Positions 8,415 to 14,598 of a DNA stretch of 64,000 bases are shown here, in pieces. A model generated the notes under the pieces. The model saw nothing but the letters and a program-made list of their open reading frames with translations, was not told where the DNA came from and ran no database searches. Source of the DNA: Anaerolineales bacterium (lineage in GTDB: Bacteria > Chloroflexota > Anaerolineae > Anaerolineales > Villigracilaceae); NCBI GenBank assembly GCA_016789305.1, contig JAEURJ010000023.1, forward strand, positions 732,084 to 796,083, in the 5' to 3' direction. The position numbers and the translations under genes are program-made. Numbering within the stretch: the first letter of the stretch is position 1; each line of letters begins with the position of its first letter.

Positions 8415-8453
8415 GCCACAGAGAGAGAGCAGGGCTTCCTCTGCTCTCTCTCT
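8415..8453. repeat. GCCACAGAG-type repeat with hairpin; probable bidirectional terminator
   Basis: 13-bp stem 8420-8432/8441-8453 between convergent genes; begins GCCACAGAG like the 58135 element. Confidence 0.6.
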
Positions 8454-8744
8454 TTATTCTTCTTTATTTTCTATTTCCTTTCGAATGCCGTACGGGTCTT
8501 TACTTACTAATTTGAGATAACGGACATGCAACGGCATAAGCCACTTATATGAACCATCAGGCTTGCCGCATTCAACCTCAAAGTTTTTATCATTGTATTT
8601 GTCAAGCACCGTCCCTACATCGCCAATATCGACGATACCCTTTTGCCCTTTTGGGACTTTAATGATCTCAACCCAATCAAACTCTTCAATTTTTTCACGG
8701 TGATTTATGAGACTTTTCCAGAATCGCAGAATACTGTTTTTCAT
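8454..8744 (-). CDS. DUF4926-like small protein
   Basis: FDWVEII...GDVGTVLDKY...FEVECGKPDG pattern; AT-rich. Confidence 0.6.
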   Translation of the reverse strand: MKNSILRFWKSLINHREKIEEFDWVEIIKVPKGQKGIVDIGDVGTVLDKYNDKNFEVECGKPDGSYKWLMPLHVRYLKLVSKDPYGIRKEIENKEE

Positions 8745-8754
8745 TGTATTAAAA

Positions 8755-9576
8755 TTATTTTCTAAAAACTAACATCTCATCCCGCAACTCAGCTGCGGCT
8801 TTGGCGGGATTGGCCGCGCGTGAGATTCCACGTGAGACAGGGATTAACATTCCCTTCCCATCTTTTCGCAAGCCAGCTTTCATTGCGGATTCCAATTCAC
8901 CGCCTTGTGCGCCGACACCTGGGGTGAGGAACCATAGATTCGGCGCGGTCGCGCGGATTCGTTTCGTCGCTTCGATATGAGTTGCACCGACAACGAGTCC
9001 GATGTTGTTTTTGGTGTTCCAGGATTGGGCAAGCTGTGCGACGTGTTCATATAAAGGTAAGGGTGGATGGCCATCCGCCCCTACGACAGATATATCCTGC
9101 AAATCGCCGCTGCCCGGGTTGCTTGTCTTGCAAAGCAGAAAGACTCCCTTCTCTGAATTTTGAATAAATGGATCGATGGAATCTTTTCCGAGGTATGGAC
9201 TCAGCGTGATGCAATGTGCGCCCAGTGAGTCAAATGCGGATTTTGCGTACGCTTCGGCGGTGGATGAAATATCTCCGCGTTTCGCATCGAGCACGACGGG
9301 GATCAACGAGCCAAGCCTTTTTGACTCTGCGTCAATGGCTTCGATGACCTGCTTGAGCGCGGTCCAGCCTTCAGGGCCGAAGACTTCGAAGAACGCGGCG
9401 TTGGGTTTGAATGCCGCAGCATAAGGAGCTGTTTGCTTGACGAGAGTCAGGCAGAAGTCCAGTGCAGATGCGGCAGTGGGTTCCTTTAGGTCAGAGATGT
9501 GCGGGTCGAGTCCAACGCATAAAAGCGAGGAACAATCGTCGACGCGTTTTTCAAGAAAAGAGAAAAAAGATTCCAT
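8755..9576 (-). CDS. pyrF: orotidine 5'-phosphate decarboxylase
   Basis: LCVGLDP, FKPNAAFFE, DAKRGDI, TSNPGS, LVVGAT, PGVGAQGG, VSRGI. Confidence 0.95.
   Translation of the reverse strand: MESFFSFLEKRVDDCSSLLCVGLDPHISDLKEPTAASALDFCLTLVKQTAPYAAAFKPNAAFFEVFGPEGWTALKQVIEAIDAESKRLGSLIPVVLDAKRGDISSTAEAYAKSAFDSLGAHCITLSPYLGKDSIDPFIQNSEKGVFLLCKTSNPGSGDLQDISVVGADGHPPLPLYEHVAQLAQSWNTKNNIGLVVGATHIEATKRIRATAPNLWFLTPGVGAQGGELESAMKAGLRKDGKGMLIPVSRGISRAANPAKAAAELRDEMLVFRK
9057..9084. repeat. GTAG-type REP palindrome inside pyrF
   Basis: Minus strand GTAGGGGCGGATGG|CCATCCACCCTTAC; same length and similar arms as the palindrome at 59992-60019. Confidence 0.7.
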
Positions 9577-9584
9577 AGGTCTCC

Positions 9585-9640
9585 GTTGGAAAGTTGGCAG
9601 GTTCGAACGTTACAACGTTTAAACCTGCCAACCTGTAAAC
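9585..9640. repeat. inverted 8-mer tandem-repeat element between pyrB and pyrF
   Basis: Seven contiguous 8-mers GTTGGAAA/GTTGGCAG/GTTCGAAC/GTTACAAC/GTTTAAAC/CTGCCAAC/CTGTAAAC; perfect 11-bp inverted repeat 9593-9603/9622-9632. Confidence 0.8.
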
Positions 9641-9644
9641 ATTC

Positions 9645-10625
9645 TTATGCCTTGCCCAACACCATCGCCAGCAACGCCATTCTCACATACAAACCATATT
9701 CCATCTGACGGAAATACGCGGCGCGCGGATCGTCGTCAAAACTTTCACTGATCTCGCCCACGCGCGGCAGCGGATGCATAACAGCCATTTCCTTCTTCGC
9801 GGCTTTCATGATCTCGGGGTCGATCACATACGCGCCCTTGACCTTTTCATAGTCGGCGGGGTCTTCGAAACGTTCCTTTTGCACGCGGGTCACGTATAGA
9901 ATATCGGTGTCAGGCAAAACTTTTTCAAGCGAAGAATATTCGGCCTGCGGCACCTTCTTTTCAGCCACTTCGTCCATCACTTCCTTTGGCATCTTCAAAA
10001 TATCGGGAGAGACATAATTCAATTTGATGTTCTTGAAGTTCGAAAGCAAACGTGCCAGCGAATGGACAGTGCGTCCATACTTGAGATCGCCAAGCATGGT
10101 GACGTTCAAATTATCGAGCCGCCCGAGTTCCTCCATGATCGTGAAGGCATCGAGCAGCGCCTGCGTGGGATGTTCGCCGACTCCGTCGCCTGCGTTGATC
10201 ACGGGTTTCTTCGCTGCCTTCGCCGCGATGGCCGCCGAGCCCGTTTCGGGATGGCGCAGCACGATCACATCGGCATAACATTCAAGCGTGCGGATCGTAT
10301 CTGGCAGGCTCTCGCCCTTCGACACCGATGAATATTTCACTTCGCTGATCGGGATGACCGAGCCGCCGAGCCGTTCCATGGCTGCGGTGAACGAGGATGA
10401 TGTTCTGGTGGATGGTTCGTAAAACAGGTTCGCGAGAATTTTTCCCTTCAACAGATCGAACGTTCCGATGCGCTCGACCATGCCGCGCATTTCGTGTGCT
10501 ACGCCGAACACGTATTCGAGATTTTCGCGGTTGAACTGTTTGACGGAAAGAATGTCCTTGCCGTACCACTCTGCGTTCTTGTTCTCGCCGAATGGCAGGT
10601 GTGGGGATGTGGATTGAGTGGGCAT
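9645..10625 (-). CDS. pyrB: aspartate carbamoyltransferase catalytic subunit
   Basis: [45 protein letters not shown]. Confidence 0.97.
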
Positions 10626-10628
10626 TGA

Positions 10629-10675
10629 TTAGTCTCCTGGTCTTTTAGTCTGATAGTTTGTTGTCTTTTAGTTTG
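10629..10675. repeat. TAGTC/GACTA 8-mer tandem array upstream of pyrB
   Basis: TTAGTCTC/CTGGTCTT/TTAGTCTG/ATAGTTTG/TTGTCTT/TTAGTTTG. Confidence 0.7.
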
Positions 10676-10677
10676 GT

Positions 10678-10716
10678 GGTCGAGTAGCCCCGTGTTTGTC
10701 GGGGCGTATCGAGACC
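10678..10716. repeat. REP-like element GGTCGAGTAG...GTATCGAGACC
   Basis: Imperfect outer inverted repeat with inner stem GCCCCG-N7-CGGGGC. Confidence 0.6.
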
Positions 10717-10848
10717 TGATCGGGACTCTGGTTGCACGCTGGCAACGAATCTCGTTTAATCACATGGTTCACGCTTGAGCGTATCCCTGTTCGCTTCTTA
10801 CTACGGGTGAGTTGGTTCTGTTTCGATGATTCTCTTCTTTACTCGAAA

Positions 10849-11283
10849 TTAAAGCCCAATCTTTTTCACGAAGACAGAAAAATTGTTTTCTACTTCTCTC
10901 CAGTAATGTATTGTGTCGCCACTCCACCAATCGCTTGCAACTACTCTTGGGTCAATTGTATTTGTTCGATAATCTAGCGCTATTCCTATATCAGCGCCGG
11001 CTACTCGATTTACTGCAATAAATAATGCTTTGTCGACATCTAGCCACGGCAAATCTCGCTCGGAAGTTTTACCTCCTCTATATTCATGAAATAATTCGGA
11101 CATGTGAGAGTCGTCTGCCAAAAATCCTGAAGATTCTCTTCGCATTTCATCAAGATTGAGAAGAAAGTCGACAGGTTCTTGAAGAAAGGGGATAACCTGT
11201 TCTATTGTTTTGTCTGACGGTTGTTTCCAACGGCCGGTATTTATTAATTCAGCTAACAATGGAGGAGGTGTTAATTGATTCAT
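10849..11283 (-). CDS. SMI1/KNR4 (SUKH)-like immunity protein
   Basis: LFIAVNR...IALDYRTNTIDPRVVAS...WREVENNFSVFVKKIGL resembles a SUKH C-terminal half. Confidence 0.6.
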   Translation of the reverse strand: MNQLTPPPLLAELINTGRWKQPSDKTIEQVIPFLQEPVDFLLNLDEMRRESSGFLADDSHMSELFHEYRGGKTSERDLPWLDVDKALFIAVNRVAGADIGIALDYRTNTIDPRVVASDWWSGDTIHYWREVENNFSVFVKKIGL

Positions 11284-12341
11284 TCGGATTTCTCCTCATG
11301 CCCATGTCGGTGATGAATATCGGGCATGTGATTGTGATCATGCTCCTCGGCAGGATGTTCATGCTCGTGTGAGTGGACTCCTTTTGAGTCGTCGTGCCCA
11401 TGCGCGGAGTCGTCGTGACTGTGGCTGTGTTCATGAATCAATGCTGTGTGAAAATGCGTATGTTCATGGTTTTCATTGATGAGCAGTAGCGCGCCACCGA
11501 TCATCAAGATCGCGGCAATGATGAAGAAGAAAGATGGCAACTCACTGAAAATAACAATTGAAAGTAATACGCCCGCCAGCGGAGCAGTGCCATACAAGGC
11601 GCTGGTGCGCGCCGCACCCAGTCCACGCATGGAGCGGATGAAGAGCATTGTGCTCAATCCGTAACTGACAAATCCCAAGACCAATGTGCCGAGAATAATT
11701 TTCAGGGACGGCATTTGATTTCCAAGGAAAAATGCCAGCAGGAAAGAAAATGCCCCAGCGACCAATCCCTTCCATGCGACGATGGCGAGCGGGTCTTTGC
11801 CCGAGATGTTGCGCGTGAAATTATTGTCTACGCCCCACAGCACACAGGCAAGGATGATTCCCAGCGCGCCGAGTGAAATTCCAAACCCCTCGTTGAAATT
11901 TGTGGAGAGGAAAATGCTCGCCAAGGTGATAATGATGATCGCGGTCCATGCACGGCGGCTAATGGCTTCTTTGAAAAATAACATAGCAATGACCGTTGTC
12001 CCAACACCTTCGAAGTTCAGCAACAACGAAGCCGTGGATGCCGGAGTATTTTGCAAGCTGATCATCAAGATGATCGGAGCGAGGATTCCGCCCGAGATGA
12101 TCGCGCCCGCCAGCCATTTGATGTCTGGCGATTTGATATCCGCTTCTGCATTTTTGGATTGCATTCGCTGAGTTAATCTAAAGAGAAATGTCCCCGTGCC
12201 ACTACCGAGATAGAGAAAAGCCGCGAGATAGATCGGCGCAATATTGTCACCCAATAATAATTTTGCAATCGGTGCACTCGCCCCGAAGAAGAGGGCGGCG
12301 GTCAATGCTTGCAGGATGAACGTGAGATTGTTTGATTTCAT
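11280..12341 (-). CDS. EamA/DMT transporter with His-rich C-terminal tail
   Basis: About 10 TM helices, LLLNFEGV, WGVDNNFTR, and a C-terminal HEHTHFH...HHRHGH tail. Confidence 0.88.
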   Translation of the reverse strand: MKSNNLTFILQALTAALFFGASAPIAKLLLGDNIAPIYLAAFLYLGSGTGTFLFRLTQRMQSKNAEADIKSPDIKWLAGAIISGGILAPIILMISLQNTPASTASLLLNFEGVGTTVIAMLFFKEAISRRAWTAIIIITLASIFLSTNFNEGFGISLGALGIILACVLWGVDNNFTRNISGKDPLAIVAWKGLVAGAFSFLLAFFLGNQMPSLKIILGTLVLGFVSYGLSTMLFIRSMRGLGAARTSALYGTAPLAGVLLSIVIFSELPSFFFIIAAILMIGGALLLINENHEHTHFHTALIHEHSHSHDDSAHGHDDSKGVHSHEHEHPAEEHDHNHMPDIHHRHGHEEKSE

Positions 12342-12688
12342 TTTGCTTTTCCAAAATCAAACAAATGATTAGCCAGCGGAATGATGTTGATCAAAAATTC
12401 TTCGTAGGGATGATTACCCTTGATCACCTTGATGGCTTCATTGACCAATTCCCGCTTGCAGTTGACTTCGAGTTTGTATTCGGCAACTTCACTGATTTTC
12501 CCGATATCCCCTTCGAATGGGTTGGACCCTTCCAATGGACGGAAGTATCCCTGCACGGCGGAAAGAGCCACGCAATGATCATAATTTCCAATCCGTCCCA
12601 CGCCGATCTTCGCGAGTTCATCGCGGATCTGGAAGGCGTAATCCCGTGGGACAAAGATTTCGAGTTTTACATCAGTAAAGTTTTGCAT
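12338..12688 (-). CDS. YqfO/NIF3 central (PII/CutA-like) domain protein
   Basis: KLEIFVP, GVGRIGNYDHC, GYFRPLEGSNPFEG, HPYEE. Confidence 0.8.
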   Translation of the reverse strand: MQNFTDVKLEIFVPRDYAFQIRDELAKIGVGRIGNYDHCVALSAVQGYFRPLEGSNPFEGDIGKISEVAEYKLEVNCKRELVNEAIKVIKGNHPYEEFLINIIPLANHLFDFGKAK

Positions 12689-13757: not shown

Positions 13758-13771
13758 GTGTTACCTTTTTG

Positions 13772-13841
13772 TGTCACCCTGAGCGGAGCGAAGGGTCTCT
13801 GTGATAATCGTAGAGATGCTTCGCTGTCGCTCAGCATGACA
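13772..13841. repeat. composite palindromic REP (TGTCA...GAGCG / CGAAG family)
   Basis: Outer TGTCACCCTGAGCG/CGCTCAGCATGACA, inner AGCGAAGGGTCTCT/AGAGATGCTTCGCT. Confidence 0.8.
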
Positions 13842-13855
13842 CGGAGCTGAAATAT

Positions 13856-13887
13856 AAAAAAAAAGAGAGCCGCTAAAAGCGACTCTC
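13856..13887 (-). terminator. intrinsic terminator (attenuator) in pyrC leader
   Basis: Minus strand GAGAGTCGC-TTTTA-GCGGCTCTC followed by 9 T. Confidence 0.85.
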
Positions 13888-13891
13888 GAAT

Positions 13892-13963
13892 TCATAAAAT
13901 AAAAATACCCATTCCAAAGAAGTGTTGACGAAAGAAACGCCTGCGGTTGGGATGTTTGTACAT
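13892..13963 (-). CDS. putative pyr leader peptide MYKHPNRRRFFRQHFFGMGIFIL
   Basis: 23-codon ORF translated by hand, lying between the promoter and the terminator; its stop ends 4 nt before the hairpin. Confidence 0.55.
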   Translation of the reverse strand: MYKHPNRRRFFRQHFFGMGIFIL

Positions 13964-13971
13964 TGCGCCGA

Positions 13972-13999
13972 ATTTTACGCGGATTTGGGGAAGTGTCAA
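13972..13999 (-). promoter_or_regulatory. sigma70-type promoter of pyrC operon
   Basis: TTGACA-N16-TAAAAT on the minus strand. Confidence 0.7.
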
Positions 14000-14079: not shown

Positions 14080-14598
14080 ATGGCCGATATCTCCGCCATC
14101 TTCTTCATCCTGTTAATCATAGGCATCGCCTTTCCTGCCATGCTCACTGCGTGGTGGTTGTTGTTTCCATCCGTTGTATCGCGCGCGCAATCCCGCGTGG
14201 ATAAGACTCCCTGGGGCACGTTTGGGATGGGACTCATCATCCTGATCGCTGTGACGATTCCCATCGTCATCCTGCTCGCGCTTCCCTTCGGACCTGCGAA
14301 ATTTGCCGGCTGGATTTTGCTTGCGGCTGCGCTGGCAGTTTCTTCCATCGGCTCCGCGGGGATTGCCGCACATTTGGGTGCAAGACTTTCACGTCAAAGC
14401 ACCTTCTCTGCCTTGAGCGGATTTGTGCGCGGCTCTGTTCTGCTTGAGCTTGCTGCGTTCTTCCCGGTGCTGGGTTGGTTCTTCATCTGGCCGCTCACGA
14501 TCATCATGGCTTTCGGTGCCACCGGCTTCGCGTTCCTCAATTGGATGCCGCGCGAAAAGACTGTCCGCGTACTTGAGCCTATTTCAACTCAAGCTTAA
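14080..14598 (+). CDS. hypothetical membrane protein (4 TM)
   Basis: Start MADIS after GAAAGG; hydrophobic; lies upstream of DUF1800. Confidence 0.75.
   Translation: MADISAIFFILLIIGIAFPAMLTAWWLLFPSVVSRAQSRVDKTPWGTFGMGLIILIAVTIPIVILLALPFGPAKFAGWILLAAALAVSSIGSAGIAAHLGARLSRQSTFSALSGFVRGSVLLELAAFFPVLGWFFIWPLTIIMAFGATGFAFLNWMPREKTVRVLEPISTQA

Follow-up and report, generated by a model that had tools for sequence, protein, structure and literature searches.

A promoter-proximal reading frame and terminator upstream of pyrC in Anaerolineales: a probable ribosome-mediated attenuator of pyrimidine synthesis and uracil uptake

In an Anaerolineales bacterium, the dihydroorotase gene pyrC is preceded by a promoter, a short upstream open reading frame (uORF), and an intrinsic terminator, a unit referred to here as the pyr leader. 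It lies in a stretch of 64,000 nucleotides (nt), the window (positions 732084 to 796083 of contig C24), taken from a 4.88-Mb genome in 25 contigs that is 99.7% complete. The original prediction, made from the bare sequence, called the genome Chloroflexota-like, and correctly so: the organism belongs to the order Anaerolineales, near Candidatus Villigracilis. On balance, the pyr leader is probably a ribosome-mediated attenuator like those of Escherichia coli pyrBI and pyrE, and probably one that is sensitive to uridine triphosphate (UTP). The parts of this reading differ in strength. (i) That the leader is a conditional attenuator for pyrC and permease genes is very likely. (ii) That the ribosome translating the uORF acts as the antiterminator is likely, with somewhat less assurance. 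(iii) That the UTP-dependent speed of RNA polymerase is the signal has an even chance of being right, or slightly better. The observations from which the argument is built are the anatomy of the leader, its conservation, and its association with pyrC and permease genes exclusively, together with the lack of both PyrR and an antiterminator and the occurrence of other near-leaderless attenuators in the same genome.

The leader occupies positions 13999 to 13856 of the minus strand, and every element named in the original prediction is present there (Table 1): the promoter, the ATG 8 nt farther on, the uORF, the U tracts, the 4-nt gap, the stem, and the run of nine U residues. The promoter, TTGACA-16-TAAAAT, is strong and of the sigma-70 type; with 11 of 12 matches, it is the top promoter-like site in the 10 kb scanned. 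Judging by promoter geometry, transcription would start at the A residue that precedes the ATG by 1 nt, and the mRNA would be near-leaderless. At the other end of the uORF, the TGA stop codon is separated from the hairpin by a 4-nt spacer (ATTC). The stem of the terminator has 9 to 10 base pairs, one of them G.U, with a 3-nt loop when 10 pairs are drawn. The hairpin appears in both the minimum free energy and the centroid folds of the leader; over all 211 nt, z is -5.8.

Table 1. The pyr leader, neighboring features, and other leaders of the same genome. Positions refer to the window unless a contig is given.
Feature	Position	Strand	Basis or remark
-35 hexamer TTGACA	13994..13999	-	CTTGAC invariant in 40/40 aligned leaders
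-10 hexamer TAAAAT, 16-nt spacer from -35	13972..13977	-	TAnAAT invariant in 40/40 aligned leaders
GC-rich discriminator/initial transcribed region TCGGCGCA, 8 nt	13964..13971	-	-10 to uORF ATG
Leader uORF, 23 codons + TGA, peptide MYKHPNRRRFFRQHFFGMGIFIL	13892..13963	-	ATG at 13963, TGA at 13894-13892
Additional U tracts of the leader	13931-13937, 13916-13922
U-rich tract UAUUUUUAUUUUAU, candidate UTP-sensitive pause region	13894..13907	-	Sequence
Terminator hairpin, DNA arms GAGAGTCGC-TTTTA-GCGGCTCTC, RNA GAGAGUCGC-UUUUA-GCGGCUCUC	13865..13887	-	Fold, alignment
Terminator U9 tail	13856..13864	-	Run of at least 6 T invariant across leader family
74-nt near-perfect inverted repeat	13770..13843	-	Two copies of dispersed repeat GTCAyyCTGAGCGnAGCGAAGrrTCTC
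pyrC, short-form dihydroorotase, 355 amino acids	12690..13757	-	TIGR00857, 272 bits; several dihydroorotase equivalogs
Same-strand genes 3' of pyrC	8454..12688	-	Gene calls, profile matches
pyrB	9645-10625	-
pyrF	8755-9576	-
Strong terminator after DUF4926-like reading frame	8420-8453
Divergent membrane-protein gene, 172 amino acids, no family match	14080..14598	+	5' neighbor of leader
Paralogous leader	G000:C24:655937-656080 (locus L040 1323-1470), outside window	+	5' of NCS2 permease gene
carAB leader, near-leaderless uORF MFIQLSLRRTRRSTPPFLQRLEVFDLTDGAIQDCMNENVN	G000:C24:40512-40720, outside window	+	5' of carA-carB
Thr-codon leader, near-leaderless uORF MFRQIVVDTTNTNRNTRTHTVTG...	G000:C3:276984-277190, other contig	+	5' of class I/II pyridoxal phosphate-dependent aminotransferase

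How often would such an arrangement turn up? The genome was scanned for a promoter followed 5 to 11 nt later by the ATG of a reading frame of 8 to 80 codons, with an intrinsic terminator close to where the frame stops. The scan gave 5 sites, 4 of them 5' of biosynthetic or transport genes, and the combination therefore exceeds chance. One of the sites is a second, paralogous copy of the pyr leader on the same contig, in front of a gene for an NCS2 permease of 478 amino acids whose top NCBIfam match is uracil permease (224 bits, below the curated cut-off). In this copy, TTGACT-16-TAAAAT is followed after 8 nt by an ATG opening the peptide MYKQFAYRQSIHQHFFGMPVLIL, and the stop codon by a 6-nt spacer, the hairpin GAGAGUUGC-UGAAA-GCGACUCUC, and a run of seven U residues. 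Both uORF peptides have 23 codons and share 12 identical residues, 5 of them encoded by different codons. According to nhmmer and a covariance model of the leader (R1), the genome holds these 2 copies only.

Beyond this genome, the leader belongs to a family. A 13-sequence profile applied to 145 Anaerolineales loci around pyrC and the permease gene recovered 61 full-length leaders, 58 of them distinct. Given a paralogue of the same length and a family of related copies, the leader is no chance arrangement, and conservation of the uORF and terminator in relatives, by which the original prediction could be checked, proved stronger than expected. Among 80 pyrC loci, the leader lies directly 5' of pyrC in 30 and 5' of a permease gene preceding pyrC in 14. 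Strong matches to R1 are confined to sites just 5' of pyrC or the permease gene; in dozens of genomes, the leader always has the same orientation and stands immediately 5' of pyrC or a uracil permease gene. Of the 17 families of the order that were sampled, 12 have similar leaders, with promoter, ATG, reading frame, and GAGAGCC terminator, in front of pyrC. The invariant columns of the alignment are the promoter hexamers and the terminator. Three subfamilies can be distinguished, with peptides that are unrelated from one to the next, and the segment from the ATG to the U tract shows little conservation across them.

The position of the terminator is itself informative. In relatives, only 16 to 30 nt separate it from the pyrC ATG, leaving no room for a second promoter, so pyrC transcripts must cross it, an arrangement that makes sense only with conditional termination. 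Nor does the terminator have an upstream minus-strand gene to serve, since the 5' neighbor of the leader is divergent. pyrC is the first gene under the control of the leader.

Not every relative has the leader at pyrC. In many genomes of the same genus it is absent there, and TATACT is found 6 to 7 nt before the pyrC ATG instead (loci L003, L004, L007, L008, L010, L011, L012, L015, and L018, and 17 of L066 to L145). The TATACT-N6-ATG spacing at these loci points to a leaderless pyrC mRNA. Several of the genomes with this type of promoter carry the attenuator 5' of a uracil permease gene immediately upstream. As for the class as a whole, a covariance-model search yielded matches in the same family only, and its strict filters scored 15 candidates per genome, which says little about absence. 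When upstream regions from other orders of the class were read by eye, different terminator-containing leaders were seen 5' of pyrC (L184 at about 1300 to 1500, L185, and L186). One example has TAGAAT-CCCGGCAUGGGCCGGG..., an AUG inside a 5'-terminal hairpin, and a long GC-rich terminator. A terminator before pyrC may thus be a theme that runs across Anaerolineae in nonhomologous forms. Another conserved leader, distinct from the pyr leader, was noted 5' of a more distant NCS2 permease paralogue (L055, L056, L058, L059, and L060); it consists of a GC-rich hairpin and U run, followed by ...GGAGGTG(A/T)... some 100 to 150 nt before the start codon.

How could a terminator in front of pyrC be made conditional? 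In E. coli pyrBI and pyrE, low UTP slows polymerase in U tracts, and the leading ribosome closes up and prevents the hairpin; at high UTP, polymerase escapes the ribosome and terminates. The pyrBI paradigm is said to be the work of Turnbough, Roland, and colleagues. A comparable course of events can be proposed for the pyr leader. The strong promoter would start a near-leaderless mRNA, its AUG 1 to 3 nt from the 5' end, and a ribosome would translate the leader peptide of about 23 codons up to a stop codon 4 nt before the intrinsic terminator. With pyrimidine nucleotides (most likely UTP) abundant, polymerase would cross the U-rich last 20 nt fast and outrun the ribosome. The hairpin would then form, and transcription would end before pyrC with the release of a predicted RNA of about 105 nt. 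With UTP scarce, polymerase would linger in the U tracts while the ribosome closed the gap. A ribosome at or near the stop codon would cover the 5' arm of the hairpin, there would be no terminator, and transcription would proceed into pyrC and probably on to pyrB and pyrF. The paralogous leader would control the uracil-permease-like gene in the same way. A ribosome is needed to give the scheme its polarity, because slow transcription of the U tracts alone would favor termination. The genes concerned fit, as de novo pyrimidine synthesis and uracil import are both wanted under pyrimidine scarcity. The original interpretation as a UTP attenuator thus gains support from the conservation of the family, the lack of PyrR and of an antiterminator, and the U-rich tract. 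The start site, the translation of the uORF, the pausing of polymerase, and the role of UTP are here deduced from sequence.

Which RNA structures does the leader contain? The terminator, 98% paired over 40 leaders, is the sole structure in the RNAalifold consensus; most of it is invariant, so covariation adds little. The search for an antiterminator covered complementarity of the upstream leader to the terminator's 5' arm in 54 leaders, and pairing did not exceed the level of shuffled sequence (mean z = +0.37; 1 of 54 below -2). This comparison also disposes of one apparent compensatory change between the paralogues that might have indicated an antiterminator. No curated family of riboswitches or other structured cis-regulatory RNAs matched the leader (Rfam gave nothing relevant at E values up to 10), and no conserved fold except the terminator was found. 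Composition, on the other hand, is distinctive within the family: the last 20 nt before the stem are 54 to 59% U versus 19 to 30% earlier in the leader. The constraint in this U-rich segment appears to be exerted at the nucleotide level, because the residues that it encodes vary among hydrophobics. The same segment sets the pyr leaders apart from the ordinary terminators of the genome, their 5' flank being U-rich and not A-rich. Ordinary terminators (e.g., at C18:305344, C22:74060, and C18:58817) are typically bidirectional, with the form A tract-GAGAG...CUCUC-U tract. The stem was considered as a specific motif and dismissed, GAGAG...CUCUC-Un being the usual terminator shape in this genome. 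A U-rich/GAGAGCC site at C24:392605, tried as a further leader, is an ordinary terminator after a phosphoribosyltransferase gene.

Is the uORF translated? Its start codon, its open frame, and analogy suggest that it is. An ATG, never GTG or TTG, begins 7 to 10 nt after the -10 hexamer in all 54 leaders that could be parsed, and at 14 nt in one further leader. With this spacing a Shine-Dalgarno sequence would have no place, and the 5' end should lie 1 to 3 nt before the AUG. The near-leaderless character of the message, as judged from the spacing, is made more credible by the TATACT-N6-ATG promoters of pyrC in relatives. From this ATG, the frame contains no stop codon over a minimum of 63 nt (21 codons) in 54/54 leaders, and the +1 and +2 frames are interrupted within 62 nt in 33 and 20 of the 54, respectively. 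The leaders are related, so these counts carry no formal probability; the pattern does span three subfamilies with unrelated peptides. The commonest length of the uORF is 23 codons. In most leaders the stop codon falls between -3 and +5 nt from the terminator stem, and about a third of the reading frames run through the terminator. By its placement in the 54 leaders, the frame would bring a ribosome onto the hairpin or within a few nt of it. A likeness between ATGTACAAACATCC and ATGCTCAAACTTCC raised the idea that the uORF is a remnant of the 5' end of pyrC; it is probably a coincidence, the uORF family being old and widespread.

Further encouragement comes from other leaders of similar build. 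Besides the two pyr leaders, the sites found in the architecture scan include those in front of carA-carB and of an aminotransferase gene. The carAB uORF contains RRTRR, with four Arg codons, and is followed by a terminator; an antiterminator segment upstream, CUCCAAAGG, is the exact complement of CCUUUGGAG in that terminator. From its sequence, this looks like a classical arginine-sensing attenuator acting on the first step shared by the arginine and pyrimidine pathways. The second leader has 7 Thr residues in 12 codons, an antiterminator, ACGGGGCGUUGG, that pairs with CCAAACGCCCCG, and a terminator, and looks like an attenuator of the threonine type. As both would be sensible only if translated and coupled to transcription, translation of near-leaderless uORFs is likely in this organism. 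In relatives of the same genus, ilvD has a conserved leader of another kind, in which TTGACx-17-TATAAT is followed by a uORF with abundant Ile, Leu, and Val (e.g., MFTFFYLSLITILIVVLIIKGLFSVRMATVRVKK) and by a terminator (L163:1501-1619, L165, L167, L169, L170, L171, and L174). It looks like a branched-chain amino acid attenuator.

Several observations weigh against the proposed mechanism. Some lineages, namely, those with TATACT-N6-ATG promoters, can do without the leader at pyrC. No conserved pause hairpin was found by RNAalifold in the leader family; the candidate CAYUUC-UUY-GRAUG has frequent mismatches and is missing from the consensus. The GAGAG...CUCUC stem is so common in ordinary terminators of the genome that its conservation is not special. 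In a few relatives (L027 and L022), the uORF stops 10 to 17 nt before the hairpin, so that a ribosome on its stop codon would hardly extend that far. Finally, selection on the peptide is weak, with a ratio of nonsynonymous to synonymous differences (pN/pS) of 0.72 versus 0.93 and 0.86 in the other frames. Over all 23-codon uORFs no codon-position periodicity was detected, divergence being saturated, and the effect within subfamilies is weak. Weak selection on the peptide is what would be expected if only the act of translation mattered.

Could a trans-acting factor, such as a PyrR-like RNA-binding protein or a small RNA, set the efficiency of the terminator instead, the uORF being incidental? 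Of the alternatives, this one survives best, and it is still unlikely. The first candidate would be PyrR itself. The best match to the PyrR model NF003549 in the genome scores 28.5 bits against a cut-off of 138, and no PyrR protein was found in any of 41 genomes from 17 families of the order, although 6 control genomes known to have PyrR scored above the cut-off. The PyrR binding loop (RF00515) has no match in the leader at E values up to 10, and its best match genome-wide, outside the leader, reaches 27 bits against a gathering score of 54. The original prediction had recognized no PyrR binding-loop consensus, and this holds at both levels, RNA motif and protein being absent alike. The 5' arm in one relative (AGUCCAGAGUCGCU) resembles the loop consensus; a PyrR loop was dismissed all the same, as there is neither an RF00515 match nor a PyrR protein. 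For some other factor, one might point to the core of subfamily 1, CAYUUCUUYGGRAUG, potentially able to fold into a small C(UUYG)G hairpin, and to the invariant base of the GAGAG/CUCUC stem. However, the other subfamilies have not retained the core, the small hairpin is not called by RNAalifold, and the stem, as mentioned, has the shape usual in this genome. Such a factor would also leave the invariant position of the ATG, the uniquely open frame, and the placement of the stop codon unexplained.

A different possibility is that the peptide matters for itself, as an arrest peptide of the TnaC/SpeFL type whose nascent chain senses a pyrimidine metabolite and brings the ribosome to a halt at the stop codon, on top of the terminator arm. 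The stop codon lies at the base of the terminator in most copies, the paralogues share 12 of 23 residues, 5 of these with synonymous codon changes, and a QHFFGM core is kept, in subfamily 1 only. Third-position wobble in this core, however, is equally well explained by nucleotide-level constraints. The low overall selection on the peptide (pN/pS of 0.72), the unrelated peptides of the three subfamilies, and the reading frames that run through the terminator in about a third of leaders all speak against a dedicated arrest sequence. The polarity is awkward as well, since the end product would have to relieve stalling, not induce it. An arrest peptide is accordingly hard to credit.

The first transcribed nucleotides might offer yet another sensor. 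In E. coli pyrC and pyrD, start-site switching is established. By a logic like that of E. coli pyrC, a nucleotide-sensitive choice between C and A in ...GCGCAAUG could alter the length of the 5' end, and with it the efficiency of leaderless translation, adding a cytidine triphosphate (CTP) input to the terminator or replacing the UTP input. The conserved GC-rich discriminator, which has C-A-A/U as its last nucleotides ahead of the AUG, would suit such a choice, and the E. coli genes provide the generally known precedent. The idea is drawn purely from sequence, though, and the carAB and Thr-codon leaders have similar start regions, so the motif may reflect general needs of near-leaderless initiation. 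The chance that it is right is slim. The remaining alternative, a free-standing small gene (for a hydrophobic peptide of 23 amino acids or a small RNA of about 105 nt) with no regulatory link to pyrC, would explain why a strong promoter and a strong terminator bound a complete short transcription unit, but it is very improbable given the strict synteny in one orientation, only 5' of pyrC or a uracil permease gene, the lack of room for another pyrC promoter in relatives, and the poor conservation of the peptide.

A bolder speculation joins some of these threads. The leader peptide could be a ribosome-borne sensor of a pyrimidine metabolite, either as an arrest element or as a start-site-dependent leaderless switch, in an order, the Anaerolineales, that runs the making of nucleotides and amino acids (pyrC, the uracil permease gene, carAB, the gene behind the Thr-codon leader, and ilvD) by near-leaderless attenuators instead of protein repressors. 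This is doubtful, with odds well short of those given to ribosome-mediated attenuation.

What lies downstream of the leader? The dihydroorotase begins at the motif LPGLIDPHVH and lacks the N-terminal 45 or so residues of standard profiles; this short form is conserved across the order and the class. Following pyrC on the same strand are a reading frame of 116 amino acids, an EamA transporter gene, a reading frame of 144 amino acids, pyrB, pyrF, and a DUF4926-like reading frame. The label yqfO, given to the 116-amino-acid frame in the original prediction, is unsupported, the sole match being a sub-threshold one to CutA1. No good minus-strand terminator was found between 13757 and 8454, nor a consensus promoter or terminator in the 223-nt gap 5' of pyrB. 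With no terminator between the genes, cotranscription of pyrC, pyrB, and pyrF is plausible, and the stretch from pyrC through pyrB and pyrF may be a single operon. Between the terminator and the pyrC ATG (13757), just 5' of the ribosome-binding region of pyrC, sits the 74-nt inverted repeat, which the original prediction had passed over. Its two inverted copies, which would fold into a hairpin, belong to a dispersed repeat found 18 times in the genome, whose inner stem shows compensatory variation (AUUCU/AGAAU, ACCCU/AGGGU, and AUGCU/AGCAU). The closest relative (L066) is without the repeat at this place, marking it as an insertion, and it is probably not part of the attenuator.

The pyr leader is the first concrete candidate found for the control of pyrimidine synthesis and uracil uptake in Anaerolineales, an order that is abundant in wastewater and sediment, almost entirely uncultured, and, in the 41 genomes searched, without PyrR. 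If the proposed mechanism is true, the logic of pyrBI arose independently in a distant phylum, giving a repressor-free system in which the speed of polymerase is read by the first ribosome. It would also mean that a ribosome starting on a near-leaderless mRNA can be the coupling ribosome, which bears on the question of which bacterial lineages keep transcription-translation coupling. On the practical side, 58 distinct copies and a covariance model that works make the family well defined. It could be deposited as a new cis-regulatory family and could help in annotating pyrimidine regulons in metagenome-assembled genomes.

How does the pyr leader compare with known systems? No earlier description of it was found in the literature or in Rfam. 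With attenuators of the trp, his, and thr type, it shares a leader peptide, a terminator, and a reliance on transcription-translation coupling, but it has neither an antiterminator hairpin nor a run of codons related to the pathway. The carAB and Thr-codon leaders have both of these trp-type features, mutually exclusive hairpins and a run of regulatory codons. Leaderless uORFs that act as attenuators have been described in mycobacteria, where they encode polycysteine (bioRxiv 10.1101/834739). Like the pyr leader as read here, they place a leaderless short reading frame at the 5' end of an operon mRNA as a metabolite-responsive attenuator. They respond to an amino acid by way of Cys codon runs, whereas the pyr leader has no run of regulatory codons and is proposed to sense a nucleotide through the speed of polymerase; nearer to the mycobacterial uORFs are the carAB (Arg) and Thr-codon leaders of this genome. 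PyrR-dependent attenuation, found in Bacillus, many Gram-positive bacteria, Thermus, and some Chloroflexota (RF00515), has the same output, a leader terminator over pyr genes and the uracil permease gene pyrP. It differs in its means, for the pyr leader comes without a PyrR protein (in 41 genomes), without the binding loop, and without the anti-antiterminator/antiterminator architecture.

The most instructive comparison is with the pyrBI attenuator of E. coli and its leader peptide, pyrL (PMC5021804, PMC4824070). Common to both are a promoter-proximal intrinsic terminator 5' of a pyrimidine biosynthetic gene, a leader reading frame that reaches the terminator so that a ribosome can block the hairpin (here, as far as the sequence tells), U-rich sequence before the terminator, a GC-rich promoter discriminator, and the lack of an antiterminator RNA. 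The differences are considerable. The two share no sequence homology, and the pyr leader occurs in Chloroflexota. Its uORF is predicted to be near-leaderless, lacks a Shine-Dalgarno sequence, and has 23 codons versus 44 in pyrBI; it usually stops 4 nt before the hairpin, whereas the pyrBI frame reads through it. The pyr leader also has no detected pause hairpin and no initial UUU run for reiterative transcription. It serves pyrC, possibly together with pyrB and pyrF, as well as a uracil permease gene, and its dependence on UTP is a deduction. In the matter of geometry, a still better parallel is E. coli rph-pyrE, in which, as is generally known, translation of the upstream reading frame ends a few nt before an intrinsic terminator, as it would in the pyr leader, and the UTP-dependent speed of polymerase sets the coupling and hence the read-through. 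This arrangement, a stop codon before the hairpin, makes rph-pyrE the closest geometric match to the pyr leader among the systems considered, with the difference that its upstream reading frame is the full-length gene rph and not a dedicated, near-leaderless mini-reading frame.

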